A program made the translations under genes and the position numbers. Of a stretch of 64,000 nt of DNA, positions 4,609-31,540 are shown piece after piece. The stretch is taken from NCBI GenBank assembly GCA_022813865.1, contig JALDZX010000018.1:124001-188000 (forward strand), in the 5' to 3' direction. Within the stretch, counting starts at the first letter, position 1. Every line of letters begins with the position of its first letter. Below the pieces are notes generated by a model that saw only the letters and a program-made list of their open reading frames with translations, did no database searches and was not told where the DNA came from. The DNA comes from Xylographa opegraphella. Lineage: Eukaryota.

Positions 4609-6297
4609 ATGTCGGTTCTCCTTTACCTTGTAGGGGTGTTCGTCGTGATTGCGGTGCTTCTATGGAGCCACATTCGTATGCCAGGAAATATGCCCAAGAA
4701 TATACCCACAGTTCCGATTTACATCAGTTTGATGGGTCTCTGGTCGGATATGGGTCAGGTGGACATCTACAACAAGTGGCTCCGCGAACCGCTCGAGAAG
4801 TACGGCGCTGTTCGAATTTGGTTCGCGGGCCGTTGGAACGTGCTAGTCACTCGGCCAGAATACATTACAGATATGTTCCGAAATGAAGATTTGTACGCGA
4901 AGGCGGGTAGTCAAAAGAAGATTCCATGGAGCGTAATAGCATCGCTGGTTGGAGACAATATCATCAATTCGCATGGCGAGACGTGGAAGAACTACACGGC
5001 CATAATGAAGCCGGGGCTTCAGAAGACGCAATTCGATTCGAAACCCATACTTGCCCAATCTCGAAAGTTTGTTAATGTTCTATTGAAAGCGCAAGAAGAC
5101 GTCGGGCATAATAGCGGGGTTTTGGTGAATCCTATAATCCAGCGGTTTGCTATATCTGCGATGGGTCAGAGCTTCCTCGATATCGATTTCAAGGTACATC
5201 AATCCCACAAAATGCGACTGCAGAATACTAAATTCAGTATAGTGCTTGGAAGATCCCAATACACGTATCAACGAGTTGCAGAACATCATTAAACGCACGA
5301 TATTCAAGCCCCTCTATTTCAATTTCCCAATCTTGGACAAATACCCATATATCTTTACATCTCGTCGACGCGCGTTCGCGATCATGCATGAGTTCGAAAA
5401 CCTCCTTGACGAACTCGTTCGAACTCGACCGAACAAGCTGAATCGGAAGGAGCCTCTTGCCCCCCAGGACGAACTCGTCGTTCACATGTTAGAGCGAGCG
5501 CTGGAGGAGGGCAAGATCACCAAGGAAGCATACCTTGCGAACCTTAAGATTACTTTCTTGACTGCACACGAAAATACCCAACAGCTGATGAACTCGATGT
5601 TTTGGCAATTTGGGCATGATCTGGTACGTTTAAGGAGAAGCTTGGGAGTCTCCTCAAGATATACTGACGTAAAGTCTATTAGACATTTCAAGAAAAGCTC
5701 CGCGCCGAAGTACTCGCTACAGGTGTTACTGAACCTACTCCCGAAGTTCTAAACAAGCTTCCATATTTGACAGCCGTTATCTGCGAGCTACTCCGAGTAT
5801 ACCCCCCGGTATCCCAGCTTATTAACAGGGTTACTCTGGAGCCAGCCAATCTCGGTGGCAATATCAGTATTCCCAAAGGGACCTGGGTAGGCTGGAATGC
5901 ACCCGGTGTTCACTCCGATCCAGCTGCGTGGGGACCAACAGCACGGGAGTTCATTCCGGAGAGATGGGGCGACAAGCCAGAAGATATCATGGCCAAGTAC
6001 CGCAAAGAGACTGTTAGGGGTAGATTCATCGCATTCAACAGTCATTCGAGGAAGTGCCTGGGACAAGGATATGCGCTTCTGGAACTCAAGATGTGCCTCT
6101 TTGAGCTCGTCAGGCGTGTGAAGTGGACGATTGACCCAGGATACAAGATGAAGCTGACCTCGGTAAGTGAAAATAGAACGACCGTCTTGTGCGACTGTTA
6201 CTAACAACTGATGTAGGGTGGTATCCTTGCGCCTCTGGGTGTGAAGGTCCGCTTCGAGGAGCTTGACACGGGTAGGATTTCGGAGAAGACGCTATGA
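4609..6297 (+). CDS. Cytochrome P450, CYP56/Dit2-like (XanG-like oxidative coupling P450)
   Basis: N-terminal TM anchor; YAKAGSQKKIPWSVIASLVGDNIINSHG resembles Dit2/CYP56; I-helix TAHENT, ELLR, PERW and heme motif FNSHSRKCLG. Predicted introns 5194-5242, 5624-5682, 6163-6216. Confidence 0.9.
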
Positions 6298-6963
6298 GTG
6301 GCCAGAGGGTCGATGTTGTATAGCAGCAGAGTAGTGATATAGATGGTCAAGGTATACATTGCATAATGTGGTATGAAGCGCGAGTGAGCCTAAGCATATT
6401 TCATACTGGAATCCTTGGATATACTTTGCGATCTGTTCGTCAGCCATAACAAAGAACAATACAAGTGAAAGCTACAGGTCGCTGCTGACTACTTTGCCCA
6501 CACAAATTTAAATTAATTCTAACACGGGTACTTGATATTCCCTTAAGACTCGAGAAGCAGTGCAAGATCGCAGAGCATTGCACTCATAGTTATGGAGGCC
6601 TCCATCCAGTACATCAACGAGGTACTCACAAATAGTGCGAATAGGGCAAAATTAACGCAAGATCAGGGGGCATACCCGCGTAACGTTTAGCGACAACTCA
6701 CCCAATCTTCCGCTTGATCCCCCCAGTGGCTTAGTAACCCCTAAGGCTGACCGCACTACGATAGTTAGTGTAACCTTGCGTCAGCTCAGCGGACTCAGCG
6801 CTCCCTGGATTGCTTCCGGTGCCGAGACAAAGACACCTCCGTGTGAATCACCGTGGTTGTTTCGATGCGCTAGCGTTGTCCGTTCCTTAATTATGCGCTT
6901 CGTACTTCTCTTGGGCTACTCTAGGATCTGAGATTCCAGCAAGAGTCCCTCGTTGAAGCTAAC

Positions 6964-9006
6964 ATGGCACCGAACTACTCCTACCAGAAGGTCGACGACG
7001 CCGAAAGCGATGGGGACTTCCAGAATCCCGCAGCGAGGCCCAAGTCTCGAGGAAAGAGCGGAGAGTTCTCACTTGGGCAATCTGTTCAGGTCGGGTGGCT
7101 GAAGCGACCATCGGTCAGTCTCGCTCGAGCGGTGGATTTCGTTCAGCTGGATAGTTATGCTGATTTCGACTAGGTATTCTGGCTCTTGCCCGCGTTCTTA
7201 CTCTTCAACCTGGCCATGGGCATGACGGCAATGCCCCGGATGAATGTCTTGATATCGTTGATATGCCGTAACGTGCTTTCGAATGGGATGCCTGCAGGCC
7301 ACGAGGCTGCGGCGGGAGGGCCGATGGGGAACTCTATGGGTCAAAACTCCCGCCGTCATATGGGAATGGGTGGAGGAGGTGGGCACGCAGGCAATTCTAC
7401 CGGACCGCTCAACTACTCGCCGGAAGCTGTGGTCATTGGGGATTACAACCCACAGTGCTCGTTCAAAGAGGTCGAATCGGCCACTGCGATGCTTACCTTG
7501 TACGGGAATCTCATTGCTGGAATCCTAGGGGCAATATTCACTCCGGTCTGGGGAATGTTGAGCGACAGATACGGCCGTGTGAGACCACTCGCTGCCGCAT
7601 CTTCGATATTCCTTGGCGGAGAGATCATCAGTGTTCTTATTGCTGCTCTTCCTGACGCTTTCCCTCTCAATTGGATCTACTTTGCGTTCATATTGGAAGG
7701 ATTTAGGTATAGCGCCTGAGATACGAAGCAAGCATAGGACTGACATGAATGCCAGCGGATCGTTCCTTGTTATTATGGCTTTGGCTTCGTCGTATGCTGT
7801 GGACTGCACACAAGATAATGAGCGGAATGTCGCTATTGGTTAGTTTTGAGTGAAGTCCAGTGAAAGCCGTTCTAACTTTCCACAGGCTATTTCCATGGAA
7901 GCATGTTCCTCGGTATGGCTGCGGGACCAATATTTGGTGGCTATCTTGGCATGAGTGGTGGTGAGAGTAGACCCATGCTTATCTTCTATACGGCTCTGGT
8001 ATGTTTCTGGTTCTCTAGTGCTTTCATAAACTATATAGCTAAACTCCTGAAGGTCATAAGGGGCTTTGGAATCGCCTTTCTACTTTTCTTTGTACCTGAA
8101 AGCCTATCTCGTTCCGAAGCCCGTCCAGAATCGGCGATCTCAGAACTCAAACAACTCTTCGCGGCGGCCAAGAGTCAAAGCTGGGCAGAGAGAATCAGAA
8201 GTGCAAATCCGCTCCACCTACTCCGCATTCTTGCACCATCCAGAGCGACTGCTGGCAGCAGCGTCCAGAGAAATCTGATCACGCTGACTAGTATCAACAC
8301 GATTATATTTGGAAGCGTGATGGGTGCAATGAATGTTTTGATGCTGTACTCGGAGGTTTGTGTGATACACTGTGATAATAGACTTCTGCTCACAGTATAA
8401 CAGTTCGAGTTCGGGTGGGGCAACAAAGAGAGCGGTATCTTTCTCTCGGCTGTCAATTTCTCCCGGACAATTGCCACTGTCGGCGTACTTCCTCTCGCCA
8501 TCTACCTTTACCGCCGATGGCTATCCCGTACCGACCAGGCATCCACAGAGCACGGTTTCGATCGCCTCGACCTCTTCCTCATCCGTACCTCTGTCTTGTC
8601 GGACGTCATCGGCTTTGTCGGATATGCCATGGCGCCTAGCGGCACGCTTTTCATTCTTTCTGGCATTATCGCCTCACTTGGCGCAATCGGTCTTGCGACT
8701 TCAGAAGCTAGCATGACGAAGCTGGTAGACAGCTCACAGATCGGCGAACTTCTCGGCGCTCTAGGGTTCCTACAAGCGGTAGCAAGAATTATCGCACCTA
8801 CCATTGCGTCTCTGACCTACTCGTGGACCGTGGCTTCGATACCACAGCTTGTTTTTATGGGCATTGCGGTTTGCTTCGTTGTTGCGTTCGTGGTGTCATT
8901 CTTTGCACGCCCGGATACCTCGAATGGTATATTTGCGAAGGAAGAGACCGAGGATGGCGAACCGATGATTCCGCTACCAGCACGAAAGGCATGCGCCCGT
9001 TGCTGA
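6964..9006 (+). CDS. MFS transporter (SLC46/tetracycline-efflux-like), multi-exon
   Basis: MFS motif A WGMLSDRYGR, many hydrophobic segments, C-terminal GELLGALGFLQAVARIIAP. First predicted intron 7114-7173, with several more short introns. Confidence 0.85.
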
Positions 9007-10746: not shown

Positions 10747-12597
10747 ATGTCCTCCAGAAGCAGCATCAATGCGCCCGCTAACATGGATAACACTCAGACC
10801 GAGAAAGGCGATATAGACTCGCCAGAAGTAAGCTCATCCCTGATCGCTTAGCGGCTATATCTCAGATCTTCATATTGATGTTTAGAATAGGTGATCCACA
10901 AAACCGAGCGAACCATTCGAGGTATCAAGTGGGTCGTCGTTGTCGCCGCTGTCTTTTCTTCCGTGTTCCTCTTCGCGCTTGACAACTCCATCGTTGCGGA
11001 TGTCCAGCCCAAGATTATCGAAGCGTTCCCGGGGAGTATCGACAAGCTACCATGGATCTCGGTGGCTTTTGCGCTCGGAGCAGCTTCCACGACACTCGTC
11101 TGGTAAGATAATCCCGTGATCCTGTTGCAGGCTTGTATTAGCCTAATAGCTCCTACACTTGGAACTGGGAAAGCCCCCAGTGATATCGGACTATCTCCTG
11201 ACTCTTACAGGGCCACATTGTTCACAACTTTCGATGCAAAATACAATTATCTTATTGCCGTCTTTCTGTTCGAGGTCGGGTCTGCTATTTGCGGCGCAGC
11301 AAATACGATCAATGTCCTCATTTTTGGCAGAGTACTCGCTGGACTGGGCGGCGCTGGTGCATACGTGGGAGTTCTGACGCTCCTGACCGCCCTCACTGAA
11401 GCACAAGAGCGACCGCTCTACATCGCATCCACTGGCCTAATTTGGGGCTTTGGAAGCGTACTGGGCCCTATTATCGGAGGCGGTTTCGCCGATTCCTCCG
11501 CTACCTGGAGATGGTGCTTCTATATCAATTTGGTCGTAGCCGGGGTTTTTTGTCCAGTATACTTCCTCTACTTGCCTAGGGTCGATCCCCAACCTCATAG
11601 GAGCATGAACGAGCGTTTCCATGAACTCGACTACGCCGGTATCTTCCTTGTCATCGCAGCTTTCGCCCTTGGAATTACAGGACTCTCGTTCGGTGGATCT
11701 CTCTTCGCATGGAACTCAGCCACGATCATCGCACCACTCGTCATATCCTTCATCCTCATCGTGATGTTTGGAGTACAACAGACCCTGAGTCTATTCACCA
11801 CCCCTGACCGACGCTTATTCCCTGTACATTTCTTGAAATCACGCACGATGCTTCTAATGTTTATCGAGAGTGCTGCCAGTGGAGCTGGAATCTTCATTCC
11901 GGTCTACTTCATTCCGTTGTTCTATCAGTTTGCCGAAGGTACCACAGCTCTGTCAGCAGCAGTTCGACTTCTACCTTTCCTGTGTCTGCTGGTCTTCTTT
12001 TCTCTCCTTAACGGAGCGATCTTGAGCAAGGACGGACACTACGCACCGTGGTACATTGGGGCAACTGCTCTTATCGTCATCGGATCCTCCCTGATGTACA
12101 CCGTGAACGAGAATACCAGCACTGCTGCAATATATGGCTACTCTTCGATTATCGGTATTGGTGCGGGCTGCACCTTCCAAGCCGGTTTCATTGTAGCTCA
12201 AGCTGCTGCTCCTCGGTCGGAGATGTCTCTGGGTAAGCTATGGACACCACGGTTTCGATAGTCTAGCTAATGAATTCCAGCGGTTGCATACATCAATCTG
12301 GCCCAGATCGGTGGTCTCGTTATCGTTCTGACACTCGCAAACACCATCTTTCTCAATCTCGCTCAAGAGAACATTGCAACCGTTCTCCCTGCAGCAGACT
12401 CGGCCACTATCAAACTGGCACTTTCTGGCACAGGCTCAGACTTTCTGAAAACTTTGAGCCCCGCAATTCAGGCGCAGGTTCTTCATGCTATCGTCAACGC
12501 CATCAGCAAGACATACATCCTTGCCATTGCTGGCGGAGCATTGGGCTTGGTGTGCGCTTTCGCTATGAAGTGGGAACGCCTTATCCTGGAGATGTAA
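10747..12597 (+). CDS. MFS 14-TM drug:H+ antiporter (DHA2, secondary-metabolite efflux type)
   Basis: FLFALDNSIVADVQP, LFEVGSAICGAA, GPIIGGGFADSSATWRWCFYIN. Predicted first intron 10828-10890, with further introns near 11.1 and 12.25 kb; stop TAA 12595-12597. Confidence 0.9.
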
Positions 12598-13756
12598 TCA
12601 TGCGCGGTGGACAAGGTGAGAGGGAGATATTAGATACGATAGCGGACTGCATAGTATGGGCAAGCATCGGACGGTCTAGATTGCATGTTTGGAGTTTATC
12701 AATTGAGGGCTGGCCATGGTTCGGATAGTCTCATCAATGCTGACCTCTTGAAGAGTTCACGTATTGAAATATAGACATACTATCCACGGTCTTACGATTT
12801 GTGGTTACCACTATCAATTTGCAATGAGTTCCGTGATGCCGCGGCACAGTACTAGGAGCCGGCCCACCGACTGTTGGCCCCTTAATTAAGGCCAAAGTAG
12901 GGGCGGTTTACGGAGTAGAAATCCCTGGAATGGGCCGATCACCTAAGCTTCAAGGGGCCTCATGGGCTAAGGCGTCGGGACCATCACCAAATCACCCAGC
13001 TAATGCCCATTGAGTAGGTCCGTAAATCTAGGTCCACTGAGACACTGTATTCGAGGCGATTCCCAGGAGCCGTCACTTATCGTAAATCCATCCTGTCCGT
13101 ATCTACCTTACCGAGCTTACTTAGGGTTGGTACTCGCTAAGGTAGTGGAATTTTACTAAGCCATTGATCCAACGGAAGCGCATTTCTCGGAGAGTCCGAC
13201 ACCCTCACTGTGGATACAAGACGACTGCACTGGCTGACGAACCCTGACCTGCCGCGAGGGCTTGTGTTATTGATGATGCACACATTGACTAGCCTGATAT
13301 CGGCCCTCACGAGCTGTGTCTCGCCAGCGCGCAGAGTCTTCAGGATGAAGCAGATCCTTGACTTCTGCTGTTAACGCAATCAGCCAGTGACTCGCTTTGA
13401 GCGTTGAGCATGGCTGCGCGCGCTCACTCACCGCCGGCTTCTCCCAGTCATCTCACCGAATAAACGCCAATGTAGTCTGTTGTAGCCTTGTGGCGTCTGT
13501 GGTTTCGGAACTCGGGCGATGTGTGTCGATGCAGAGGTCAGCTTACTCATAACGACAGTAATTCAGCTCATGCGGCTGGTAACGACCGCCATGCATCCAG
13601 ACCTGAGTATTGTGCAATTCATTGCAGGTAAGCTGCGATGCCCTAGTTCTATCCCATGCCTCGTTACTTCGTCCTCGAAAATTGTTCGTGGTCTTGTCAT
13701 TTCCGATTTCAAAGTGTTTGAATTTAGCCTTGATCCATTATTAGACACTCATTGCC

Positions 13757-15302
13757 ATGGTCGTGATACAGGAAGACAAGGAGGTTATCGAGAGACATGA
13801 CGTTCTCATTGTGGGCGGAGGTCCCGTCGGCTTGTTCATGGGACTCTCACTCGCCCAAAAGGGGATTGAAGTTTTGGTTCTAGAGGCCGAAGCTGACATC
13901 GTCCCAAGTCCAAGAGCTCTGATGTGAGTGTAAGAGTGTGCATACGTAGTTGGACGTCGATAGAACCTGTTGTGCTAACTGTGCTACTTCCCTAGGTATT
14001 TTCCCATTGTACTCAATGAGTTTGAGAAAGTTGGCATATTAGACGACGTTGTCAAGGCCGGCTACAAGAACCAAGAAGGTTTATGCTTTAGAACACCAGC
14101 GGGTGGCTCAGACAAAGTGCTGGCCAAAATACCACCGGGTAAAGCCAAAGGTCCCATAGATTATGGTGTGCAACTGGGCCAAAGCACAATTGCAGAGATT
14201 CTACGAAATCATGCCAAACAATGCTCAAAATTCTCCATACAATATAACACTCGGTTCGTCAGTCTTCGCGAAGAAGATGATAGTGTCAACCTCGAAGCTG
14301 CTACGACCTCTGGTGAAACTAAATACTTTTCCGCGAAGTTCATCCTGGGTTGCGATGGAGGATCCTCTAATGTCAGGAAGGCCCTCGATATCCCTCTCGA
14401 AGGCTACACATGGGACGACTGGCGCTTTCTTGCTATCAATATCAAATACGACTTCACAAAGTATGGATATCCGGCTGCAAACCACGTATTAGATCCTGAG
14501 GACTGGGCGGTCATCGTTCGTGCTGGCAATGAGAAGGAAGGTCTCTGGCGGATTGCAACTGGAATTCGGCCTGATATCCCGGTTGAAGACATAGAGAAAC
14601 ATCTTCCTGCGAAGCTGGAGCGCCTTCTACCGGGTCCGCGACCCCTGAAATACGAGGTCGTTGCTTGCAATCCATACTGGGCACATGAACGTGTAGCGCC
14701 CACCTACACTTCTGGGAGGGTTGCGCTGGTCGGTGATGCTGCCCACGTACGTTTCTGAGTCTGTCAAGCATGGTCAGATTACGTTCTAACCAGATTCGGG
14801 CTTTCTAGCTGAACAACCCGCTTACGGCACTCGGTCTCACCACCGGTCTTGTCGATGCCGCTGTGATGTCTCGCTTATTACCAGAGGCCGATACCTTTGG
14901 AGGAGCCAAGCCGTGGCGTGGCCTCCTCGAGAAATACTCTTCGATGCGGCGCAAGGACTATGTGAATAACGTGCAGAAGTTTGCACTGGCCGGGAAACTA
15001 CGGCTGCACTCGACGGATCGGAAAGTTGTGGCGGAGAAGGAAGACTTCTTCAACATGCTGAACAAGAACCCTGGCTTCGGCATGTTCGTTGCGTCCACGA
15101 TGACGGACACTCTGCCCGACAACCTCTTTCCGTCGCCGTGGTACGTTTTCTCCTCTCGTGAAGTTGGAAATGAGCTAGCTACCAGTGACTGACTCTGTTT
15201 CGCTCCAGGGAGGTGCTGGTCAGCTTTCTCAGCAAGACTGTGTTCGTTCTACGGACGATTGTGTCGATTATCTACTGGAAGATCAATGCGTCGGTCACTT
15301 AG
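13757..15302 (+). CDS. FAD-dependent aromatic monooxygenase (group A, FAD_binding_3)
   Basis: DVLIVGGGPVG Rossmann motif, GCDGGSS (DG motif), GRVALVGDAAH|LNNPLTALGLTTGLVDA (GD motif). Predicted introns 13924-13995, 14747-14808, 15141-15208. Confidence 0.9.
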
Positions 15303-15329
15303 ATGCACTGGGGTCACTTTGATGGCTTG

Positions 15330-18011: not shown

Positions 18012-19123
18012 CTATCGTCCATGACCGTCGGACGAGGCGGCGGGACTCCTTTGTGGCTTCGCCATCTCCGCCGGTATGCTCATCACCGGTACAGGCATCC
18101 AAACGTAGTGCATCTGCTGCATCATCGGAGCCTGCGGGCTCCTGCAGCAGCAGTTGCTCCCGTGCTCGCCCGGGCTGTGTGGACCTGACTCCATTCCGTT
18201 ACCTTGCCTCATGTCAGCTGGAGCTTCGAGTCTGAGGAGGGCAGGAAAGGCATACTAGATAGTGTAAAGGGACTCATAGGTATGATAGGGCCGCCCATCT
18301 GGAATGGATGCGGGTACCCAAAGGTTGGGTATGGCGTAGGTTCGGTAGGCAATTGGTACGGGGCACTGCCACTCGCGAAGAATTTGTGGTCGGTCCTCTC
18401 GGTTCCTGGTGTAGACGGAGAAGGCCCTCGCTCTGAGGTATACGAGCCTGGTCCGGAGTGAAAGTGAGGTGAGGACACTTCGGTGGAGGGAATGGTTGAA
18501 GGTGCAGTTCCGAGCTCGGGGAACGGTAGTGTGGAGTTGGACTCGGCAATTGCCGCATCGGAGAGAGCAGGAGCAGAGAATGTGGTATCTATCTGATGGT
18601 TGTTCGAAGGTGTGCCCATGTCGTTCATATGCGAGCAGCGGCAGCCCGATTCGAGCTCCGTTTCGGGCATATTCAGGAAATCTGGTAGATTCCTCCATGG
18701 ATCTGAGAAATCTGTGATATCACATTGCTCCGTCTGAACCATGGGTCTGACCTCCTTCGGGGGCTCAGGTCGAGTGATGTCGGCGGTCGTTTGACGTTTG
18801 GTCCTACTCTTGAAGGTTGGAGATTTGTCGGTATCGGATACACGCCCTTCCGCAGCTGCGGATGCATCGACAAGAGCTTCGAGCTTCTCGAGTCGGTCCC
18901 GAATCTTGTTCCCTAGCTTTACGTTAGTCAAGGCGGTTCGAATGATGGACGAACTCGAAAGGATTCTCTTACGGTAATTTCGTTGGGAGATCCTGTTCTG
19001 CAGCCGTCGCTTCTCCACTAAGTCTGCCACTTGTGACAGCTCTTCGGTCAAGTCTTGGTGGGCTTTCGGATCGGTGGATACAGTTCGAGCACGTTTTGTG
19101 AGCGACTGTTTGGAGGAACTCAT
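18012..19123 (-). CDS. bZIP transcription factor (XanC-like cluster regulator)
   Basis: Basic region EKRRLQNRISQRNYR followed, after predicted intron 18913-18972, by NKIRDRLEKLEALVD. A second predicted intron 18203-18255 (GTATGC..GCTGAC..AAG) joins ORF 18012-18212 in frame. Confidence 0.85.
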
Positions 19124-21115
19124 GGCAAGATAGGCAGCAAATATGACGAATGGTGGTACAGGGAAGTCTTCTGAGACAGAAATAGGGTCATAGAAGGTGT
19201 TACACAGAAGGATAAGGAACGTCCGGGCTTCACGGCGTTCTTTACTACTTTAGCCTCCATGAATATTCCACTGCCACGAGCTCGCACAGCTGCGCCGTGA
19301 TCCTACAGCATGGATGGAGATGGAGCACGGTAAGCCTTGGCCAGATGTGCACCGACAAGGCAGCCGTCATATGGCGTTGATCTTAGTAAGACCAAGTCCG
19401 GGACGTTGCACGAGAGCTGCATCAGACAACCCAAAACGACCCTCGAACGGAAGTTCCCCACAGCCGCAGTCTAGACAAGTGTCATCCACCACTGTTTCCT
19501 GCGCGCTACACGCCTAGGTAAGATCCTCGGCCGCCGCCACATTATGGCCTCTTTTTAGACTCCATCATTCATTGGGTCTCGACAAAGGCCGCGGCCCTCT
19601 GATGCCCAGCGTCCGATCGATGGCTGAAGGGAGGGTAACGGGATCACGGTTGAACGGAGGTCGGAGTCTCCGTTCGTCCAAGCTCGCTCTATAGGACAGT
19701 CTACCGGACCCAGCTAGCTTTTTCGTAGCCGTGGGAACTTGTCGCAGCGGAGGAAGTTGCACGATGCTGTAGGGAGTGATCTACGCAGAGGGTGAAACGC
19801 CACGGACGCTTTGCGCGGAGCGCCACGCTAGCAGAGTAATACTCGTCACCGCCCTTCGCTGTGATGCAGGCGCTCCGTAACCAATGAAGCTGTCTCAGCT
19901 TTCGTTCGGACGAAAGAGGTTCCAAGGAGCACTATGCAACCACACCTCCCACGCCCGCTTGGTCCAGCGGTGAACGCGAGCCAGCGCGTGTGGAGCGTCA
20001 CACCAGCCTGCATGATACGGATGACGGACTGCATGACAAGCTCCGAGAGCCTACCTTACGGAGTACCATGTTCTGCATCCCACGTTACACCACAACCCAA
20101 CGTCGCTGCCACCGCGTGCGTATCTGCAGGTCCTGGTTCGATTGGAAATTTCCCGGATGAGGGACGGCGATGTGAGACCCAGCGAGCTGCAACATGCGAG
20201 GGGCGACCTGCAGCCTGGATGCCCGGGCGGAAGGATTGGATGGCGAGCTCCGGTATTCTAGAAGACTTTGGTATCTGTCCTTCACGGTCTAGCGCGACGG
20301 TCTCGGGACGTTCACCTTTGCTTCCGTGAGCCAGTGGCAGCATAGAGGGCGAGTATCGTGGACACGGTACTGGCGTGCCGAATGAAAGAATATTGTCTTC
20401 CCAATTATCGAGGTTCCACCACTGAGCGTTGCTGTTGAATGTTCTGTTCAGAAGGGTCAAGGATACTACGGAGTGGCGAGTTACCTTTGTACTTATATTT
20501 TGCGTTCACGATACTTCCTTCAGTGTAACAGTCGTGGTACCGCATTTCGATCACCGAGATCCACGACGGTATGTCCTGACATCTTAGGATAAGCGTCTGC
20601 AGATGTCCTCAAACTACAGCGGGTGGTTCCATGCCTTGTTCGACTACTGCAAGGGCCTATTCAGCTTACAAGAGGCTCGATAACTACGTTGAATGAGGGC
20701 AATGCCGATTCGCTGACTAAAATGGCTTCTCCTGTCAGCTCCAGGAAAGGCTGAGGAAACCATCATACACATCTCATGTCACATAAGCTAATCGCTTGGG
20801 GACCGATCGCATGCAAGTTAGGATTCTTTCAGCGGAAGATGTACAGTAAGGGCGGAAAACATGGCTGCCCGTTGCCCATACTGAAGACGTTATTGGTCTA
20901 TTCTTAGACCTTTTTCAGCTGATTATCAGCGTCTGGTTTTAGACTAATAGCATGATATATCACGAGCTCAGAAAGGCTCTTTTTCTAGTCTCAGTCTATT
21001 GCATTCATTGACTCAGGGTCTCTCTATATAACTGCTTTGGCACCGTTTCATCGTACTTTTGTACGTTCCCTTCATACCCCAGTCCTAAGACATTTACATT
21101 TCTATTATCTTCATC

Positions 21116-23486
21116 ATGCTGGCAGCAACTTTAACTCAGTTCCAACAGCCGGCGGTATCGTCCCCATCTGTTGTACCGCAAGAGGATTTCCACTACCCGA
21201 GTACCAACGGTGATGGGACTATCACCACAGCCGTTGATCAGGAGCGCTTCTTGGCCCTGGAAAAGCGTGTGGAGACATTATTTCTTCAGATTCAACAATC
21301 AAGCATCACTTCGACTCTTACACCAACCGGAAAAGCAATGAAAAGCCGCAAATCGAAATCAAATTTTTTGGGCACAGGTCCTTTAAATCTGCCAATTACG
21401 CCTGAGATCAGTTTACCAACGACGCCAGCAATTCAACCGGATGATCAGCAGGAGATCTTCCCTGATATTCCAGACACACCATCCGCCAAACTATCGCTAC
21501 AAATTCTAGCTATTATCCAGCGATATGGGCAAAACACCGATGATGGTTGGGTTGGGAAGCAAAAATTCCTCCCTTTTGTTGAGGAGTACGTGAAGGACCG
21601 AAAGCCGGTTGAAATGGTCTTGCCGGCCTTCCCGTTCAAATCACCCAACCGGAAAGACAAGGTACTCGGCAACATGCCTGATCTGGGTGAAGAGCTAGCT
21701 TTGATGCACTTGAATGGTCTGTGTGAAAGCATCACAAAGATCTATGCCCCTGGAGCACATGTGACCATCACGTCTGATGGACTCGTATATAATGGTAAGT
21801 TCGAATCAAGGAGGCAAGGTTGGAGTCACATAATATTGACGTTCGATAATAGATCTAATGATGATCCCCGACTCGGAAGTCTGGGACTACTCCACTGCCG
21901 TCCGAGAGATCATCATGGCCAAAGAACTGAAGCACATCAAGACATTCCGCATCGTCGACCTGCTCGACTTTCACGATACTCAGAACCTCACCAGGGAGGA
22001 ATATCTTGTCCACGCCGGCTGTTATCGGCGGGAACTTATTGCCAAGTTCAGCCCAAAGAACTTTGATAGTCGGCAATCGGTCCGTGAAGACAAGGACACA
22101 TGCCTGACATATCGTGGCTACATCAAGTTCCTTACCAAGGATCTAAAATATAGTCGTCTAGGGGACGAGTTCGGTAACGAGAAAAAGAAATATAAGGATG
22201 CAATCGAGAAGCTGGCATACGACATGATATTTCGTGGCAAGGTGAGAATACTATTTCGGAGACTATTCTCCACCTAAAGTGCTAATCATCGGTCCTACAG
22301 ATCTTTGCCGCTGCCGTCAACGCCAAATGTGGAAAGTTCGTACGCTTGTCGATCCATCCGTCCGTTGGGCAGACGAAACTATCTGTTCCGTTGATTCCTC
22401 CGCCAAAGGGAACCCCTCTCATGACACCATGGCATTCATCGGTTCTTGTTGGTCTCGACGGCTCTTTCCGGACTATTCATGCTGATGAAGGACGGGAGCT
22501 ATATGATGTTGTCATGCGTGATGGAAAGCCATATCATTTCAGAGAGAAGTCAGACCTATGGAATTTTGGCAACACAAAGGTCACTTTCGAGCACTTGTAT
22601 CCATGCGGACTGATCATCCGTCCCGCCGACCCAACTACCAAGCCTTCGCTCAGTGAGGTCAACATGAAAAAAGTGCGAGGACTGGCAGAGCATCAATCTC
22701 CCGTTGTTCTCCGTGGTTTCGCTGATACCACTGACCGAGAGCTCTTCATCAGCAAGGCCTATGAGCTAGGTACGGTCCTGCCATGGACGTTCGGTATCTT
22801 GCAGGAGGTCAAGGATCATGGGAAGACCCATAAGCTACACAACAATGTTGTTAGCAATGAAGCGATGCCTATGCACTACGACGGCATGTTCAAATTCGTT
22901 CCCGAGCTAGACGCGGACGGCAATCCCAAGGTTGATGCCGACGGAAAGGAGATCAAGGTTCAAAAGCCACCCAGGTAAGCACCAATAATGTTTCTACTAC
23001 AAAGAATCACTTCTAACGAACTTCAGGTTCCAATATTTCACTTCCATCGCCACAGCCCCCAAAGGCACGGGATACACTCTCTTCGCTGCCTCGCGTCTCT
23101 TCTTCCAATACCTTCCTCACCCATACACCGTGGAACGCCTCGAGAAGATCACCTGGGCCATGGACAACAATGGCTTCTGGGACGCCAAACTCAAGAATCT
23201 TCCCCTCGTCGTCCGTCATCCAATCCGCAACACCCCTTGCATCCGCTGGCACGAACCGTGGGATGCGACCAAGACTAAGTTCTCTACTTGTGATATCACG
23301 ATCGAAAACGATGACCAGGAAATTACGCAGGTCGTCGACTCGTTGTTATACGACCCTCGTATCTGCCTACGATTCACCTGGGACCAGGGCGACATCCTCG
23401 TCTCGGACAATGTGTTGATGGAGCACACCAGAACGGAGTTTACCGGCGAGTGTGATCGGGAACTGTGGCGCATCCATTTTGACTAG
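21116..23486 (+). CDS. Isocyanide synthase (Dit1/PvcA domain) fused to a TauD-like Fe(II)/2OG dioxygenase (XanB-like)
   Basis: ICS motifs LPAFPFKSPN, KVLGNMPDLGEELAL, SDGLVYND, YRGYIKFL, RLSIH, TPWH. Dioxygenase part has PVVLRGF, HYDG (HxD), a distal H in DNVLMEHTR, and RELWRIH. Predicted introns 21795-21852, 22242-22300, 22975-23026. Confidence 0.95.
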
Positions 23487-24796
23487 TCTACCCAAGGCAC
23501 GGGGTGTGGAGCATTTGCCTAAATTGAACAACAGTGAATATTGTGGGCGTTAGCATATTGAACTTTCAACTTTTCTTATCAAAATTGTATTTTTGGTAAG
23601 CCGAGATCAACCAAAAGGTGACTCGCTATCCATCACGCGTGAGACTGGTGTGTCTATGTGGATGTGGTAGACTAGTCTGTATGTATTGCAAGAATTGCCA
23701 TGGGCGGAGCCAAAAGTCACAAGAAGGGTAAGAACCCCGGAGTAGCATTAGGTACTAAATATAACAAGACCTGTTCGACCAATGAATCCCCTATGGCATC
23801 TCAGCTCGTTGGACATGGCGCTCACTCGCTCGTAAAGCTAAGCTGAGGTTGCACGCGCCATAAGCTCATGATGGCCTCAGCAAGGTAACTCGACGAGGCA
23901 CAGCTGCTCCATTAAGTATCGGAGCGGTTTGCTGTGGTCCCTCGGTCGGACGAGTAAATCCAGGAGAGACCATGCAGCGAAGCTACGGCACGGGTCGCTT
24001 TTGGGTGACGCGATCCGCGGCAGAGAGATGTGCTAATCCACAACCGATGGGATGTCGTTGAAAGAAGGAACGGGGTCTAGCACAAGCGTGTCGGGCTGAG
24101 ATACACTAGGTACGGCCCGGGGACTAGCGCTGAGAAGGTTTGCGCAATTTGTACTCCAATCAGCTACCGGCCGGCCCTGCCTTGGAGCCCTGCAAGTCGC
24201 TCAGGGCTGCCGCACGACGGAAGCCCGGACTCCGATTGCTTGCCGTTCCGAGATTTCGCGCCTGTTTTAACCGCGGCGAGAAATGTCATCTAAAGTGAAT
24301 AGGTTCCCGCTCTGTTCGACGGTGCAGATGCCGTGGGAGGACTTATGTTTTCAGAATATATACCTATTGTATATCGAGCGTGTGTGGTGCGATTATGTAT
24401 TTATTACTAGCACAAGACCCATCTGCTGGAAAGCAAGTTCGGGGTACTTTCTGTATCTTAAACCGGATTAATATAGGAGTTCCAGCGTTGTATATGTAAT
24501 GTTGAAATATACTTTAGAACACAGAGGGTGATCAACGTCCCTCAGCACTTGAATTATATTCACAAGAACCCCGCCGAAATGCTGGTTGACCGACCATGAA
24601 TACTATTAACCAACACTTCGGAGATTCAACTAGAATTGAGGATTAGTCAGCATAATTCGGTCCCGAGAGGCTGTGCATAGTGAGAGGCCCGGAGATGGCA
24701 ATCATCTACTTTGACTTCCGATTTGCGCTTTCATCTCCCACACTGTCTCCGCTTCGGTAGCATCGTATTGTCGCGGCCTCCCGGTCAGTGCTCAAT

Positions 24797-27508
24797 ATGG
24801 AAATGAACCAGCAGGCTCAGCCAGAGACGACAAAGCGGTTACGGATCGCGCAAGCCTGCCAGTACTGCCGGAGCCTGAAAACGCGATGTCTTCCGAGCGA
24901 TCAAGAGGGGAAATGCCAGAGGTAGGGTTGCGATTTCATAATTGCCGCCCAGCGAGACGTCTGTAACATCGCGTACTTGGGGTTCCATATTATATTGACT
25001 TTCCTGCATGGTTATTGTGGGAAGTGTGCCGTTTCGTGTATAGCTGGACATTCTGTATCTCTTGCCTGAGGATCGCATGTTGCCGTTAATATTGTTGCCA
25101 CCTGGCTATTTCATTTCTTTCTGACGACGTGACTAACATCAAGCAAGGTGTTTATCATCGAAAAGAGAATGTATCAGGACGGAGAGCCAGCCGAGGCCGA
25201 AGAAGGCGCGTACCTCCAACTCGTGAGCTACCTCCCACTCAACCGCCCTCGGCGTACTGAACGCTACTCATTCTACCGGTACGCAGACGGGTTGCCCAAA
25301 TGGAGAAGAAGCTCGATGGTCTAGTTGCTCTTTTTTCTCATCCAGAAGCGCCCAAAACACCATCTGTGACCAGAGATGCAGTGCCGAGTGGAATGTCACC
25401 CGCCTACTCCCTTGCAACCCCGGACCAGCGTAGCTTACCTGTACAAGCTAAGGATGATTGGCCCCGTGTTAGTCATCATGGCCATGAGGACGTGGACATG
25501 ACAGTACACGATATGCATGATGGCCATGAGATTCCACACCGCTCTGAGGCCCTGCACAGAAATTTCTCAACTCCGGCACGATCTAATTCACTCATGAAAT
25601 CCGACTTCCAGCGGGAGCCAAGCATATATGAAGAGCGCTCAAGCCATCACTCGCACTTGGATCCTGTACACTCAAAGTATGGCCACCCGAGCCACGGGCA
25701 TTCAGATGCCAACACGAGTCCCGTACAGGATGATTCAACACCTCAAGCTTCTGTTGAGATTGAGGGAACCGCGTTTGCGGCCTTTCCGAACGAACTTATG
25801 GACTGTGATAGAGCTGAGCTTCTATTAAACGAATTCAGAGAGATGACACCCTTCTTCCCATTTGTACCTTTGTCTGCCACCATCACAGCTTTGAGCATGA
25901 GCTCGCGAAGGCCTCTTCTATTACTTGCAATTTTGATGACAACGTCTTTTGGTGACCGACAGCTGCAAGTCATTTTGGAAGAACAATACCGGCAGGAACT
26001 TTCTAAGAAGGTATTCATGAAGGGCCAGAAGAGTTTGGATCATCTGCAAAGTATTCTGGTTTATCTTGCTTGGTAAATTGGTTTTGACATTCTTCCATTC
26101 GACCGTGGATAATCTTACATCCGACAGGTATCATTTCCACTTCAAGCCTCAAGTTCAGCAGATATATCCATTGCTACACTTGGCGATCGGTATAGCAGTC
26201 GATCTTGGATATCACCAGCAGCCGAAGAAGCCGGTGGTCGACTACCCAGTCCAGACGGAGGGTATCCCAATAGTGCCTAGCCAGTCGCGAGAAGCCCAAA
26301 GAGCATTTCTCGGATGCTACTACTTGTCAACAGCGTAATACAATTCTTTCAGGATTAGATATCCTTCGGGCCACGGTATATCTGCTGACGCTCCTCCCTA
26401 GATTCGCTGTTGCACTCAGTCGACCAAACTTTGTAAAATACACCGTCTACATGACCGAATGCTGCACCCGACTGAGAGATGACCCAGAGTTCCCTTCCGA
26501 TAAGATGATTCCGCACATGATCAGTCTACATCATATTGGCGATCAGATCAATGATGCATTCCGTTCTGAAGACGGCGATATATCCCCAGCGATCCAGCCC
26601 TTGGTGCAGATACATCTCAGTCTGCTGCAGTCGCAGCTCAATGACTGGAAAAGCCAAGCGCAGTTAGAACCAAACCAACATGGTACGTTGTCCCTAATCA
26701 TGAGTATCGCCATCAACTAATTTCATCCACAGAGAATACCGCCTTCCACTTCATTAATATGGAGCTCAACAGCGTCGCGCTCCGTATGCCCGTCCCACAC
26801 CCGCCTCCCAACTCCTCCCTCCCTCCGTCCTCCACCAACCACTCTATCCTCCTCGCTTGCCTTGAATCCGGCAAAAGCTACCTGGACGCCCTTCTCGCGC
26901 CACCCGCCTCCTCGTACCGACATTTCGCCTTCACTGAATGGACACGTCTACCCTACGTCCTCGTCATCGTCTCCAAGCTCTCCTTCCCGCACCCCACGCA
27001 CTCTGCCTCGCACTGGGACCCCCGCCTTGCGCACGACCGGCTACGGCTCGACCTGTACCTCGAATCGCTCTGCTACCGTATGCAAGCCATCACCACGTAC
27101 GCCGGTCCCGCCCAGCCAATCGCCGACTTCTTTGCCAGCATGAAGTTGATCCTCGAGCGCACGCGCCGCTGGTACGAGCGTAAGGCGAAGGCGAAGCCTG
27201 GCGCACGCGATCCGATTGCTGAATACTCGCCCCTCGAAGTCATCCGCGATCCGCACGAAGTACCCGAGGGCAGTACGCTGTGTTCGAGAGGCCATGTCAT
27301 CAGACAACCACAGGATGGCGATCCGTCGTGTCCGTGCGCAGCGGCAACGGAGGACAAGACGCCTGCATCTGTGATTCCGGCCGTGTATTCTACCGACCAG
27401 ATTGGGTTTGAGGACGATGGCTGGTTGGAGAACCTCGATGATGCGTTTTGGAATATTGACCCGACGCTGTTTCCCGAGATGGGAGATATAGGTGGTTTGT
27501 CTACATAG
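24797..27508 (+). CDS. Zn(II)2Cys6 transcription factor
   Basis: Spliced N-terminus ACQYCRSLKTRCLPSDQEGKCQR|CLSSKREC (intron 24922-25147; second intron 25223-25286), RVAQMEKKLDGL coiled coil, middle-homology-type region (FFPFV, KSLDHLQSILVYLAWYHF, AQRAFLGCYYL). Confidence 0.9.
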
Positions 27509-28414
27509 CTGGGGGCACTGGGGTCGATTGGGAGTCTCTTGTAGGTGAGGGAGTAGGGCGTGAAAATAAAGATGTTTGGGAGAAGCTATACATAGCGAGG
27601 AGTCTGTGATAGGGAGCTTGCATAACATGTACGATGAACGGATTGCGAAGGACTGCTAGTCGCCGAGCATATAGACGCTTGCTTGTACAAAGCCACCGTC
27701 AATTAGAGGGCATGGTGTGTATTCGGTGATACCGAAGTCTTCACACACTCTACTCGTACTGTTTGTGCACTCTGGCAGAGAGATGTGAACCCAAACAACA
27801 TATGACACAGATTACAGGAGATCGTCTACATGATTGATTTGCATGGCAAGGTGTTCACCAGGAAATAGGAATATGATACATGTTTGATTCATCCCCCGAC
27901 GCAATGGAGGAAAGATCTCCCGTCATGGATGATGCAGCTCGTGCGAAGTACCGAAGTACCTAAGTTTAATGCTGCTTACGGTGTTGCTCCTGAGGTACGC
28001 ATTATTCCAGGCTATTGGTAGTTTTGGTGATCGCTAAACTTGGATGAAAGCGCATTCAAAGAAAGGCAACACCACGCTAAGCCCTAAGATAAATATCGGC
28101 AGATTATCTCACCACAGTCATTCTTAGCGCCTTTCTGCTTGCTGACGTTCTACTCCAAACACCCAGCCCCGTCTCCAGCTACGCGACTACACAATGATTA
28201 CAGTCAGCCCATGGCCGCGACTGGTCAAGGACCGCTATGCCGCCATGGCCGTACACGTCGGTGTCGCTACATCGTGCTTCGAGCTTACTTTTCTCACAGC
28301 GCTGCAATTCCACCTTCCACATCGATAAAAAAGCCCAAGTGCCTTCCTCGGTCCTACAAGAGCAGCATCAATTTTCCTGCTTTCGCAGCATATCGGTCCC
28401 GTAACTGAACAGCC

Positions 28415-29533
28415 ATGGCTACACAGAAGGCCATCGTCCTCGGGCAGATCGGCGCGCCGCTCACCCTGACCGAGCGGCCGATCCCCACCCCCGGCGATGG
28501 CGAGGTCCTGATCAAAGTGACTGTCTGCGGGCGTGAGTCTCCCCCCTCGTACGTAGCCGAGTTGCAGCACCGCTGACCCCCGCCCCCGCCAGTGAACCCG
28601 TACGAGCACTACGCGCGCGACTGGGGCCTCTACGTGGACAAGAGCCGCATGCCGGTGGTGCTGGGCAACGACATCGCGGGCGTGGTCGAGCAGCTGGGCC
28701 CGAACATCGAGCACGGGCTGCAGGTGGGCGACCACGTGTTCGGGCAGTCGAACTACCTCAAGAACACAAACGAGCAGGCCGGCCTGCAGCAGTACTGCGT
28801 GCTGGACGCGTACACGACCAACAAGGTCCCCGCCGGCTTCAGCGACGACGACGGCGCCTCGCTGTGCTGCAACATCATCGCGCCCTTCTGGTCCATCTTC
28901 GGCGCCCACGGCCTCGACCTGCCCTTCCCCTTCCCGCCCGGCCCCCACGACGCCCGCCAGCCGCGCGACTACAGCGCCGACACCATCCTCATCATCGGCG
29001 CCGGCGGCAACTGCGGCCGCAACGCGGTGCAGCTCTGCAAGCTGGCCGGCTTCGGCACCATCGTCGCCACGGCCGCGGCTGCCAAGGCGGACGAGATCAA
29101 GAGCTACGGCGCCACGCACGTCGTGGACCGGCACGCGCCGGACGCGGAGCAGCAGATCCGCGCCCTCGTCGGCGACGACCTGCTGTACGCCTTCGACGCC
29201 GTCAACCTCGACCACTCGCTCGGCGTGCGCTGCCTGTCCGACTCGAAGCGCGGCACCCTCGCCTGCATCCTGCCGGGCCAGGTCGACGCCGAGCTGTTCG
29301 CTCACAAGACGGCCGGCTACGACGAGAAGTTCACCCAGGGCCAGATCCACAACCAGCCCGCGCTCGCGGCCGTCTTCGCCACCTGCCTGCCCATGTGGCT
29401 CGAGCAGCGCAAGATCCGCGCCGTGCCGTGGGGGGTGTTGGACGGCTTGGATCCGGCCAAGGTGAATGCCGTGCTGGATGGGTACCGGGATGGGAAGCCG
29501 CCGCCGAAGCAGGTGCATGTGCATGTTTCGTGA
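28415..29533 (+). CDS. Medium-chain dehydrogenase/reductase (GroES-like, enoyl-reductase/zeta-crystallin type)
   Basis: PIPTPGDGEVLIKVTVCG|LNP, PVVLGNDIAGVVEQLG, Rossmann ILIIGAGGNCG, YGATHVVDR; predicted intron 28533-28592. Confidence 0.9.
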
Positions 29534-29767
29534 GCGGGAGGAAGGGCAAAGCGGTCGGGGCTGTTGGAGGTTCGATAGATGAGATTTGCGTAGCAATAGA
29601 AAAGTTTCTGTGCCGGTATGAATGTTTGTTCTATGGCATCGTCTTGTTTGGATAATTGGCCCGGGTGTACGCCCAGTGATGCTTATATTCATCTATAATG
29701 CTAGTCGGATGTAATTCGTCTACCATCCAAATCCGCCATGCACCTGCCAACTCTCACAATGACCCGT

Positions 29768-31540
29768 CTAAACACTCATCCCCGGTCCCTTCACCTCATC
29801 CGAGCCGAGGGGTGGCTTTCCTCCAGCAGGTGGACCTCCCGCTCCCGGTGGACCTCTCATGCCCGGCCCCCTCGGTGGCCCAGGCTTCCCCTCCTTCTCC
29901 TCATACTTCCTTCGCATCTCCTTCCCCCTGATCATCAAGAACCCGATACTGGCCACGCAGCACAGCTCCACTAGCGCCAAGCCCGTAAAGCACCAGCCGA
30001 TGCCCATCTTCGCGATCAGCGGCTCCACCACCACGGCCGCGACGGCGGCTGCCGGGTTCCGGAAGAGGGACGCCAGCGCGACGAGGGTGGCGGGGGTCTT
30101 GTGGAAGGATTCGGTGAGGTAGGAGGTTGTGGTGATGAAGACCCAGGTCATGCCGAAGGCAGCTAGGGAAATTGTTAGTGGGCACGGGCAAGACAGCGGG
30201 ACGGGGGAAGCTGACCGATAGTGGCGGCGATGATGACGCCCGCGGCGGAGACGTGGAAGTTGTTAAACCAGCCGTACATGAGGATACCACTGAGGGAGAC
30301 AAGAATCCCTGGGATCTGGAGGTGCAGTCGTCGCTCGGGGTGGACGGGTGTGTCTGGGTTGCGCTTTGTGAAGAGCCCTCGATGCCAGTCTGATACACGG
30401 CCGCTGATGAGCGACCCTGCCACGAGGCCAAGACCAGGAGCCATGTAAGAGACACCGACCTCGGTGCTGGTGAAGCCGTAGATGTCCTCCAGGAAGCGGG
30501 GAAATGTCACTGCCATGGCGTAGTAGGCCGAGAAGAGGATGGCGCTGTTCATGGAGACTATGACGATGGGTGGATAGTATAGGAGTTTAAAGAGAGAAAT
30601 GAGTGTTGGTGGAGGCGGTTTGGGGAATTTCTTGGGGTCGACAACTGGCTTTTGCCGCCAAACGGGGCGGGTGACCCAGTTCTTGGTTGCATAGATCTCG
30701 CCGGTACCGACTATAGAGCGGAGGGTCTCCGGTAGACAGAAGGTAAGGACGACGTAGGCTGCTGCACAAGCAATGGCTGAAGAAATTCAACTTTGGAAGT
30801 CACTAAAGCAGTGATCCGGACATACCTAGGAACCCAAATGTCCATCGCCAGCTCGTTGAGCCAGTGATGGCACCTCCAATCAGGGGTCCCAGCACAGGTC
30901 CCAGCTGGGGACCAAGGAGAACAATAGACATCTGGGATGCTCTGCGCTTGGGTTCTGTTATATCGGCTACTGTCCCAGCTCCCAAGGACAATACGCTGGC
31001 TGCTCCAAAGCCTTGAACTATCCTTAATATGAACAAAGCAGCAAGATTTGCTGGCAGTGCTGCTAACAAGATATTCGCCGCGATGAATATCAGAAGCGAG
31101 ATCATGTACAGAGGTTTTCGGCCGCCATAATCAGCAAGAGAAGCCCAGAACAACGGCTAGGTCAAATGTCAGTGCTCGATCGATATTTGCTCTTTCTTTA
31201 CTCGGATACGTACTGCTACAGCCAAGACGCCCATAAACACAGAGACAGTCGCATTTATAGCAGTTGCCGATGTATTGAATTGATCCTGTAGGACTGGCAG
31301 AGCTGGCAGGTAGATATTTCCTGCCAATGGTCCAAAAAAGCCTGCTGCTGTCACAATCAGGATAATGAACCGTTGTCGTCCGGGGGTGAATGCGGTATAT
31401 TGCGGCTTCACCACTGGTTTGGCTAACTCAGGCAGTGCTGTGGTCGAGTCGTTCTTCGACGTCGAAGCGCTCTTCTCAGGATCCGCATCGGCGAGTGTTT
31501 TCGGCGTCGGCAGAGGCGCCGAACCCTGAGTTGCAGACAT
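29768..31540 (-). CDS. MFS DHA1 transporter resembling yeast dityrosine transporter Dtr1
   Basis: GFFGPLAGNIYLPALP..INATVSVFM..PLFWASLADYGGRKPLYMISL..NILLAALPANLAALFILRI..SVLSLGAGTVAD closely matches my recollection of Dtr1; LPETLRS and PERRL DHA1 motifs; multi-exon. Confidence 0.85.

Follow-up and report, generated by a model that had tools for sequence, protein, structure and literature searches.

A probable xan-type isocyanide synthase locus in Xylographa opegraphella with a linked Dtr1-subfamily transporter as candidate exporter

The DNA analysed here is a stretch of 64,000 nt from Xylographa opegraphella (the window), and all positions below follow its numbering. In the span studied, 4609-31540, a gene for an isocyanide synthase (ICS) fused to a TauD domain is found together with genes for a cytochrome P450, a bZIP regulator, three transporters of the major facilitator superfamily (MFS), a flavin adenine dinucleotide (FAD)-dependent monooxygenase and a medium-chain dehydrogenase/reductase (MDR) protein. 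A preliminary description of this DNA had presented the ICS, the P450 and the MFS at the far end of the span as homologues of the yeast dityrosine spore-wall genes DIT1, DIT2 and DTR1. All three genes do lie where that description placed them, except that the P450 ends at 6297 and not at 6204, owing to a fourth small exon (Table 1). We compared them with proteins of other fungi and with n=73 ICS loci on metagenomic fungal contigs (L-numbered below). XanB, XanC and XanG are the proteins of the xan clusters of Aspergillus fumigatus and Penicillium, for which we rely on Lim et al. 2018 (PMC5974471) and Wang et al. 2021 (PMC8406171).

Table 1 Genes and promoter site of the studied span (aa, amino acids; ORF, open reading frame)
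Feature	Position	Strand	Details
XanG-type cytochrome P450	4609..6297	+	exons 4609-5193, 5243-5623, 5683-6162, 6217-6297; 508 aa; Pfam p450
Second MFS transporter (MFSa)	7174..9006	+	at least 3 coding pieces, start undefined; from ORF list and weak MFS_1
Third MFS transporter (MFSb), DHA2/TRI12-like	10850..12728	+	Pfam MFS_1, Sugar_tr, TRI12
FAD-dependent monooxygenase	13979..15192, 5' end undefined	+	Pfam FAD_binding_3
XanC-like bZIP regulator	18209..19123	-	one intron; divergent from ICS; conserved basic region EKRRLQNRISQRNYRK
XanB-type ICS-TauD fusion	21116..23486	+	4 exons: 21116-21794, 21853-22241, 22301-22974, 23027-23486; 733 aa; Pfam DIT1_PvcA and TauD
Conserved gene, no Pfam family	25261..27508, 5' end undefined	+	directly downstream of ICS; tblastn relatives
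MDR-type zinc alcohol dehydrogenase / quinone reductase-like gene, GC-rich	28577..29533	+	Pfam ADH_N, ADH_zinc_N
DHA1 MFS, Dtr1/CexA-like subfamily, clade A	29768..31540	-	4 exons: 31540-31214, 31156-30826, 30776-30216, 30162-29768; 537 aa
AGTCAGC site	31843..31849	+	303 bp upstream of the clade-A MFS start codon

The ICS model is identical to the annotated X. opegraphella protein P0262 at 733 of 733 residues. DIT1_PvcA (PF05141) matches two of its exons with 114.5 and 59.3 bits, and the TauD-family domain, which is of the Fe/2-oxoglutarate dioxygenase type, is C-terminal. The HxD...H iron-binding residues can be read in the model and form invariant columns in our alignment A1. Homologues were searched with the exon that spans both domains, and the best 120 of 265 proteins were considered. 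Nearly all of these 120 carry PF05141 and PF02668 together, and those among them named 'isocyanide synthase xanB' are 52-54% identical to the window ICS. In a tree of 32 sequences picked from the same 120, the window ICS falls into a 19-row clade (support 99) of lichen-forming fungi, Dothideomycetes and Geoglossum, which adjoins a clade of XanB-named Aspergillus and Penicillium proteins with Fusarium relatives. A Dit1 enzyme would be stand-alone and free of a dioxygenase, whereas the window ICS has a fused TauD domain and so do its relatives, some of them named xanB. By domain content and by the names of its relatives, the window ICS is a XanB-type ICS-TauD fusion set apart from Dit1. According to Nickles et al., Dit1-type ICS enzymes form a deeply separate clade (PMC10153163).

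The P450 model, which was built against homologues, includes the heme cysteine. A search with its C-terminal exon gave 45 representatives at E<=1e-30 among 1.84 billion proteins. Ten were looked up and eight could be named: Fusarium musae J7337_010050, a protein of Fusarium sp. DS 682, a hypothetical protein of Aspergillus oleicola, an A. tanneri protein named 'xanG', proteins of A. indologenus and Coccidioides named 'Dit2', and two Lachancea proteins. The F. musae protein is the nearest full-length representative, and its gene lies 3 genes from the ICS gene J7337_010053. A protein-cluster search with the same exon returned generic 'cytochrome P450' clusters only. A quick tree of the window model and 30 full-length sequences out of 150 listed representatives revealed a 25-row Dit2/XanG family (support 99) that splits in two. 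One part is a 9-row clade (98) with the Coccidioides Dit2 and Lachancea, and the other is a 15-row clade (97) with the window P450, the Fusarium P450 and the xanG-named protein. The window P450 is therefore XanG-type, in the sister clade to Dit2 proper, and does not share a clade with the P450s of dit clusters (Dit2/CYP56). P450s homologous to it (45-62% identity) also stand beside XanB-like ICS genes in L004, L001 and L019/L020.

The MFS at 29768-31540 starts with an ATG at 31540 and stops at 29770-29768. Its three introns, all of the GT..AG type, measure 57, 49 and 53 nt, and the model is identical to the annotated protein P0259 over 537 of 537 residues. Pfam MFS_1 scored 86 bits on exon 2 and 39.5 bits on exon 3, and PF07690 was found on all listed relatives. 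A hydropathy scan gave about 12 hydrophobic segments, with transmembrane segment (TM) 4 under the threshold used. At residue 195 stands GPVLGPLIGG, which we take to be antiporter motif C (G-x-x-x-G-P-x-x-G-G) of drug:H+ antiporters. By its fold, its ~12 TMs and motif C, the protein is a member of the DHA1 drug:H+ antiporter family. After the last hydrophobic segment the C-terminus (29768-29920) continues as a low-complexity, Pro/Gly-rich tail of ~45 residues.

Two queries, exon 3 and subsequently the X. soralifera protein in full length, were used to place this transporter within its family, and 120 hits were listed. A first tier with 58-93% identity comprises Xylographa, Lignoscripta, Pyrenodesmia, Gyalolechia, Lecanora, Xanthocarpia, Usnochroma, Variospora, Endocarpon, Plenodomus, Delitschia, Botryosphaeria and Geoglossum; all others form a second tier from ~50% identity downwards. 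Among the 120 listed hits, 16 are named as dityrosine transporter or DTR1 and 6 as 'Citrate exporter 1'; plain Qdr or Aqr names did not occur among them, one of the 16 reading 'dityrosine transporter A Q resistance'. Those subfamily relatives that bear a named role are annotated as exporters, of dityrosine or of citrate. We built a quick LG+G4 tree of 119 rows, from which three hits shorter than 400 aa had been dropped, and a careful tree of 45 rows, both without S. cerevisiae Dtr1, Qdr or Aqr sequences. The careful tree resolves four clades with 100% bootstrap each (100/100 for A and D). Clade A is the tight first-tier set with the window MFS; clade B holds Coccidioides, Dothideomycetes and Aspergillus section Nidulantes; clade C holds the Saccharomycotina, including Dtr1-named Candida, Scheffersomyces and Cyberlindnera proteins; and clade D holds the citrate-exporter-named proteins with those of Colletotrichum and others. 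Clade A joins C with an ultrafast bootstrap (UFBoot) of 84 and an SH-like approximate likelihood ratio (SH-aLRT) of 60, and the alternative A+B is not rejected by the approximately unbiased (AU) test (p = 0.377). The quick 119-row tree gives A+B with a support of 22. It is clade B that contains MFS proteins linked to dit genes, since in three Coccidioides assemblies the MFS accession is adjacent to that of Dit2 (EAS35168/EAS35169, EER24341/EER24340 and QVM10780/QVM10781).

The preliminary description had taken four N-terminal motifs as marks of Dtr1. All four can be read in the window protein, GPLAGNIYLPALP at residue 70, INATVSVFM at 95, FWASLADYGGRK at 112 and SLGAGTV at 166. They do not single out Dtr1, because they recur exactly or with 1-2 changes in all four clades, including the 'citrate exporter' proteins. 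What they mark is the Dtr1/CexA-like subfamily. A Dtr1 proper would also be linked to Dit1 and Dit2 proper, and the window MFS is linked to a XanB-type ICS and a XanG-type P450.

These placements bear directly on the possibility that the locus is a true dit cluster, whose DIT1, DIT2 and DTR1 orthologues would produce bisformyl-dityrosine and export it to build the ascospore wall, as those of yeast and Coccidioides do. The family-level homology of all three genes fits such a cluster, as do the automatic name 'Dityrosine transporter 1' on the MFS relatives (16 of the 120 listed), the weak joining of clade A to the yeast clade (84/60) and the MFS-bearing dit clusters on record in Pezizomycotina (PMC10153163, PMC12077801). 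We nevertheless hold it to be very improbable. The ICS with its fused TauD domain groups with XanB-named proteins, away from the separate Dit1-type clade of Nickles et al. (PMC10153163); the P450 lies outside the clade of Coccidioides Dit2 and Lachancea; the Coccidioides MFS adjacent to Dit2 (EAS35168 beside EAS35169) belongs to clade B and not to clade A; and the locus contains both a XanC-like bZIP gene and a word that matches the core of the XanC site. The idea of three spore-wall homologues thus survives at the family level for each gene, and none of them emerges as the orthologue of its yeast counterpart: the ICS is a TauD fusion, the P450 sits in a XanG-type clade and the MFS has a clade of its own. 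This corrects a habit of annotation: where a lichen-fungus protein is labelled 'Dityrosine transporter 1', a dityrosine spore wall should not be deduced from the label.

We then measured the linkage of clade-A MFS and ICS as the distance between their GenBank accessions on contigs of identical size, a valid measure because in the window a distance of 3 corresponds to two intervening genes. The MFS and ICS accessions are 2 apart in Plenodomus tracheiphilus (KAF2848075 and KAF2848073), Delitschia confertaspora (KAF2201236 and KAF2201234) and Usnochroma carphineum (KAI4123481 and KAI4123483). The distance is 3 in X. vitiligo (MCJ1317816 and MCJ1317819), X. opegraphella (MCJ1284005 and MCJ1284002) and X. 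trunciseda (MCJ1402736 and MCJ1402733), 4 in X. soralifera (MCJ1380009 and MCJ1380005) and 10 in Geoglossum simile (KAI9765798 and KAI9765808). The two genes are thus linked in 8 genomes from five lineages and three fungal classes, with 1-3 intervening genes in 7 of the 8. Chance was considered as a source of these accession gaps and rejected, as both proteins come from contigs of the same size and the window fits the spacing of 3. The MFS and ICS trees are compatible with each other: Xylographa, then Teloschistales, then Geoglossum with Pleosporales. In the metagenome-assembled U. carphineum both genes occur twice, with parallel locus tags (004257/004259 and 005245/005247), which suggests that either a contig or the cluster is duplicated there.

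The bZIP gene beside the ICS and a promoter word provide further evidence on the nature of the locus. The bZIP basic region EKRRLQNRISQRNYRK is conserved, together with the helix after it, beside ICS genes in 6 loci (L012, L003, L004, L001, L011 and L015), with 52% identity over 122 residues in L012. According to PMC8406171, XanC, the in-cluster regulator of xan clusters, is a bZIP protein, and AfXanC binds the site 5'-AGTCAGCA-3'. Likened to XanC by this published description, the window protein is XanC-like. A blind count of 7-mers in the 8 intergenic regions of the stretch 3.8-32.4 kb showed that AGTCAGC is the only one of 5801 observed 7-mers to fall in 7 of the 8 regions, and this word makes up the first seven bases of the published AfXanC site. 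The intergenic sites are at 4039 (570 bp upstream of the P450 ATG), 6484 (upstream of MFSa), 9996, 20712 (404 bp upstream of the ICS ATG), 24645, 28202 and 31843, so that MFSb, the 25261-27508 gene and the dehydrogenase also have one upstream. None of 3000 shuffles of the intergenic regions had AGTCAGC in at least 6 regions, and 1 of 5000 same-size draws from the non-cluster parts of the window attained 7. Other ICS genes are likewise preceded by AGTCAGC, with three sites in L012 and further ones in L007/L008 and L019. The AP-1-like word TGACTCA was if anything depleted in the window (5 found and 11 expected), and the P450, ICS and MFS promoters share no common 9- or 10-mer.

The linkage in 8 genomes and the common promoter motif indicate that the clade-A MFS very probably belongs to the ICS cluster, which would then reach to ~31.5-31.9 kb; an extension to 31.5 kb had already been proposed in the preliminary description. 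The MFS might otherwise be a bystander, a general DHA1 efflux pump or a CexA-like organic-acid exporter that is merely a neighbour of the ICS. The citrate-exporter-named proteins are ~47-50% identical to it and carry the same motifs, L012, L008 and L019 have no such MFS beside the ICS, and some MFS neighbour is common in any case, as ~60% of ICS clusters hold one according to PMC10153163. We consider a bystander distinctly improbable, given a linkage kept in lineages of three classes, where 7 genomes have 1-3 genes between the two, a clade A that is tight and separate (100/100), and the cluster-wide AGTCAGC word in the MFS promoter.

Taken together, the XanB-like ICS-TauD fusion, the XanG-type P450 and the XanC-like bZIP gene beside the ICS lead us to read the locus as a xan-type isocyanide cluster and not as a dit spore-wall cluster, with the DHA1 MFS as a co-inherited member and, most likely, the exporter of the dimer. 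We assign this reading a probability of about 0.6. The pairing of a XanB-type ICS-dioxygenase with a XanG-type P450, by which a xan-type locus can be recognised, is found here. The data above show gene identities, clade placements, linkage and motif distribution; what chemistry takes place, what is transported and in which direction are inferred. By the published xan pathway, the ICS-TauD protein would convert tyrosine to a vinyl isocyanide, and oxidative coupling of two such units by the XanG-type P450 would give a xanthocillin-like dimer, which the FAD monooxygenase and the MDR reductase could modify. The XanC-like bZIP protein would drive the cluster via the AGTCAGC sites. The DHA1 MFS would then export the dimer by proton antiport, a best guess that follows from its antiporter-type motif, its ~12 segments and its exporter-annotated subfamily relatives.

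The clade-A MFS could instead belong to the cluster with a role other than export, in re-import of a metal-isocyanide complex, transfer of an intermediate to a compartment, or self-resistance, and MFSa, MFSb or the ABC transporter would then perform the export. An ABC gene and a total of three MFS genes are situated within the cluster or next to it, genes like MFSb turn up again close to the ICS in L003, L010, L011/L015 and L023/L025, and isocyanides derived from xan genes bind copper and affect cellular copper, as reported in 10.1101/2020.07.23.217810. Co-inheritance with this ICS clade over three classes, however, was seen for the clade-A MFS only; such subfamily relatives as have a named role are exporters by annotation, and the protein has an antiporter-type motif. 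We therefore regard a non-export role as unlikely, if less so than mere neighbourhood.

Several observations count against a xan-type cluster with the clade-A MFS as its exporter. At E<=1e-8, no Dtr1-like MFS was found in the flanks of the 73 metagenomic ICS loci. Among these loci are the close relatives L012, L008 and L019/L020, covered over 10 kb of downstream and 2-3 kb of upstream flank, so that the clade-A MFS linkage is not universal within the ICS clade. For eight more clade-A species (Lignoscripta, Pyrenodesmia, Gyalolechia sp. 2, Lecanora helva, Xanthocarpia, Endocarpon, Variospora cf. flavescens and Botryosphaeria), the best 120 of 265 ICS hits contained no ICS from the same species. 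The P450 is 15 kb away from the ICS. A xanA-like isocyanide hydratase (DJ-1/PfpI) and a xanE-like O-methyltransferase were not found in the window when the DJ-1/PfpI ORF from L001 and the methyltransferase ORFs from L004 served as tblastn queries (best E = 0.059). The two other MFS genes of the cluster and the ABC transporter gene at its edge are rival exporters of the presumed product. As for the motif, AGTCAGC was identified as the core of the XanC site only after the k-mer scan, it is not enriched window-wide (14 found, 10.2 expected), and four of its sites lie outside the cluster at 40.2-45.3 kb (40285-45273). The complete 8-mer AGTCAGCA shows no window-wide enrichment either (4 found, 2.6 expected); it falls in 3 of the 8 intergenic regions, compared with 7 of the 8 for the 7-mer core.

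Compared with the xan cluster, the locus is alike in its ICS-dioxygenase fusion, its Dit2-like P450, its in-cluster bZIP gene and the XanC-site core in its promoters. It differs in an extra FAD monooxygenase and MDR reductase, in the xanA-like and xanE-like genes that were not found, and in an ICS whose clade, made up of lichen fungi, Dothideomycetes and Geoglossum, is a separate one. It also differs in transport. The description of the A. fumigatus xan cluster in PMC5974471 gives no predicted transporter, and the window has three MFS genes, one of the Dtr1 subfamily. In agreement with that description, the flanks of the XanB-like loci L001, L003, L004, L010 and L011/L015 contain no Dtr1-like MFS at E<=1e-8. 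Two of these loci resemble the published xan cluster in their gene content, with a DJ-1/PfpI gene in L001 and a methyltransferase-like gene in L004.

The likeness to the DIT2-DIT1-DTR1 cluster consists of a linked DIT1_PvcA ICS, a P450 of the Dit2/XanG family and a DHA1 MFS of the Dtr1-like subfamily, and of a common logic in which a tyrosine-derived unit is dimerised and then exported. Unlike the dit cluster, the window has a XanB-type ICS with TauD, a P450 from the sister clade and an MFS of clade A (clade B for the dit-linked Coccidioides proteins, clade C for those of yeasts), and its expected product would be an isocyanide dimer and not bisformyl-dityrosine. The CexA-type citrate exporters of Aspergillus, known here by name only, share the DHA1 subfamily, ~47-50% identity and the motifs GPLAGNIYLPALP and SxGAGTV with the window MFS, whereas they form clade D (100/100) and no ICS linkage was seen for them. 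In bacteria, IsnA/IsnB and PvcA/PvcB likewise act on tyrosine as an ICS followed by an Fe/2-oxoglutarate dioxygenase, a scheme that PMC5974471 cites for XanB. Here the resemblance lies in Pfam families and description; the two enzymes are fused in the window and clustered with P450, bZIP and MFS genes.

Much of this framework has been published. Lim et al. 2018 treat XanB and XanG as homologues of Dit1 and Dit2 and draw the analogy between dityrosine and xanthocillin (PMC5974471), so that the link between spore-wall dityrosine and isocyanides, which the preliminary description had put forward, is already made there. Linked DIT2-DIT1-DTR1 genes have been reported from Pichia stipitis (PMC2784038), from Coccidioides (PMC12077801), where deletion of the cluster led to thinner arthroconidial walls, and from Penicillium Starships (PMC12256816). 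Nickles et al. follow the dit superfamily across Ascomycota and place an MFS in clan 3 and in Onygenales (PMC10153163). In the published isocyanide-synthase and xanthocillin literature that was searched, we found no statement of a separate Dtr1-subfamily clade in xan-type clusters, although the supplements of Nickles et al., which lay outside the search, may list the family. The new element is thus the Dtr1-family transporter in xan-type clusters, the DIT2-DIT1-DTR1 linkage itself being known.

Fungal isocyanide clusters are recently recognised natural-product loci, and no exporter is known for the model xanthocillin cluster. A transporter clade that is inherited together with one XanB-type synthase clade offers a concrete candidate for this role, along with a regulator and a motif open to testing. 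The parallel with DIT1/DIT2/DTR1 carries the analogy of Dit1 with XanB and of Dit2 with XanG on to the transport step. It is conceivable, and we offer this quite tentatively, that an ICS, a Dit2/XanG P450 and a Dtr1-subfamily MFS form an old functional module that persists in parallel lineages, each with its own transporter clade: the yeast dit clusters, the dit clusters of Onygenales and Dothideomycetes, and the xan-type clusters of lichen fungi, Dothideomycetes and Geoglossum. If so, the Dtr1 subfamily would be specialised for exporting tyrosine-derived dimers, and clade A would be the xanthocillin-type exporter missing from the A. fumigatus cluster. An isocyanide exported in lichens could then bind copper or act against microbes outside the cells as part of the symbiosis.

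Other genes of the span show features of their own. The Pfam MFS_1 matches of MFSa cover two pieces, both weak and under the gathering score. The relatives of MFSb near ICS genes are 30-63% identical over segments and lie 1.5-9 kb from the ICS, and in L023/L025 the ICS match spans the DIT1_PvcA part only. MFSb-like DHA2/TRI12 proteins may be a second transporter type that recurs with ICS genes. Relatives of the 25261-27508 gene found by tblastn stand directly downstream of the ICS also in L007/L008 and L011/L015. Pfam assigned no family to this conserved gene of 25.2-27.5 kb, to the bZIP gene or to a GC-rich stretch at 15.5-17.6 kb. The latter has many overlapping ORFs of 110-200 aa on both strands and is part of a GC-rich region at 15500-20000 (0.56-0.59, vs ~0.50 nearby) between the FAD monooxygenase and bZIP genes. 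The MDR gene region is GC-rich as well (0.62 at 28-30 kb), and its contrast with the neighbouring genes could reflect a different origin. In 28200-29700 the main coding ORF of the MDR gene is unbroken and overlapped by an antisense ORF of 485 aa (28235-29692), which is probably an artefact of GC content.

At the window start, 1-2240 encode the C-terminal half of an ABC transporter (ABC_membrane, ABC_tran), 2.4 kb before the P450. Beyond the clade-A MFS are 2EXR/DUF7730-like genes. The four outlying AGTCAGC sites are near 2EXR/DUF7730-like and unknown ORFs, that at 43189 being 18 bp upstream of ORF 43207-44691; they could be due to chance or form a second target region of the same regulator. 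A second GC-rich block (~0.60-0.62) at 45200-47000 has long overlapping ORFs on both strands, for which Pfam gives a weak DUF7730 match only. Finally, a P-type cation ATPase with Cation_ATPase_N and Cation_ATPase_C domains is encoded at 35874-39387, 4 kb past the clade-A MFS.

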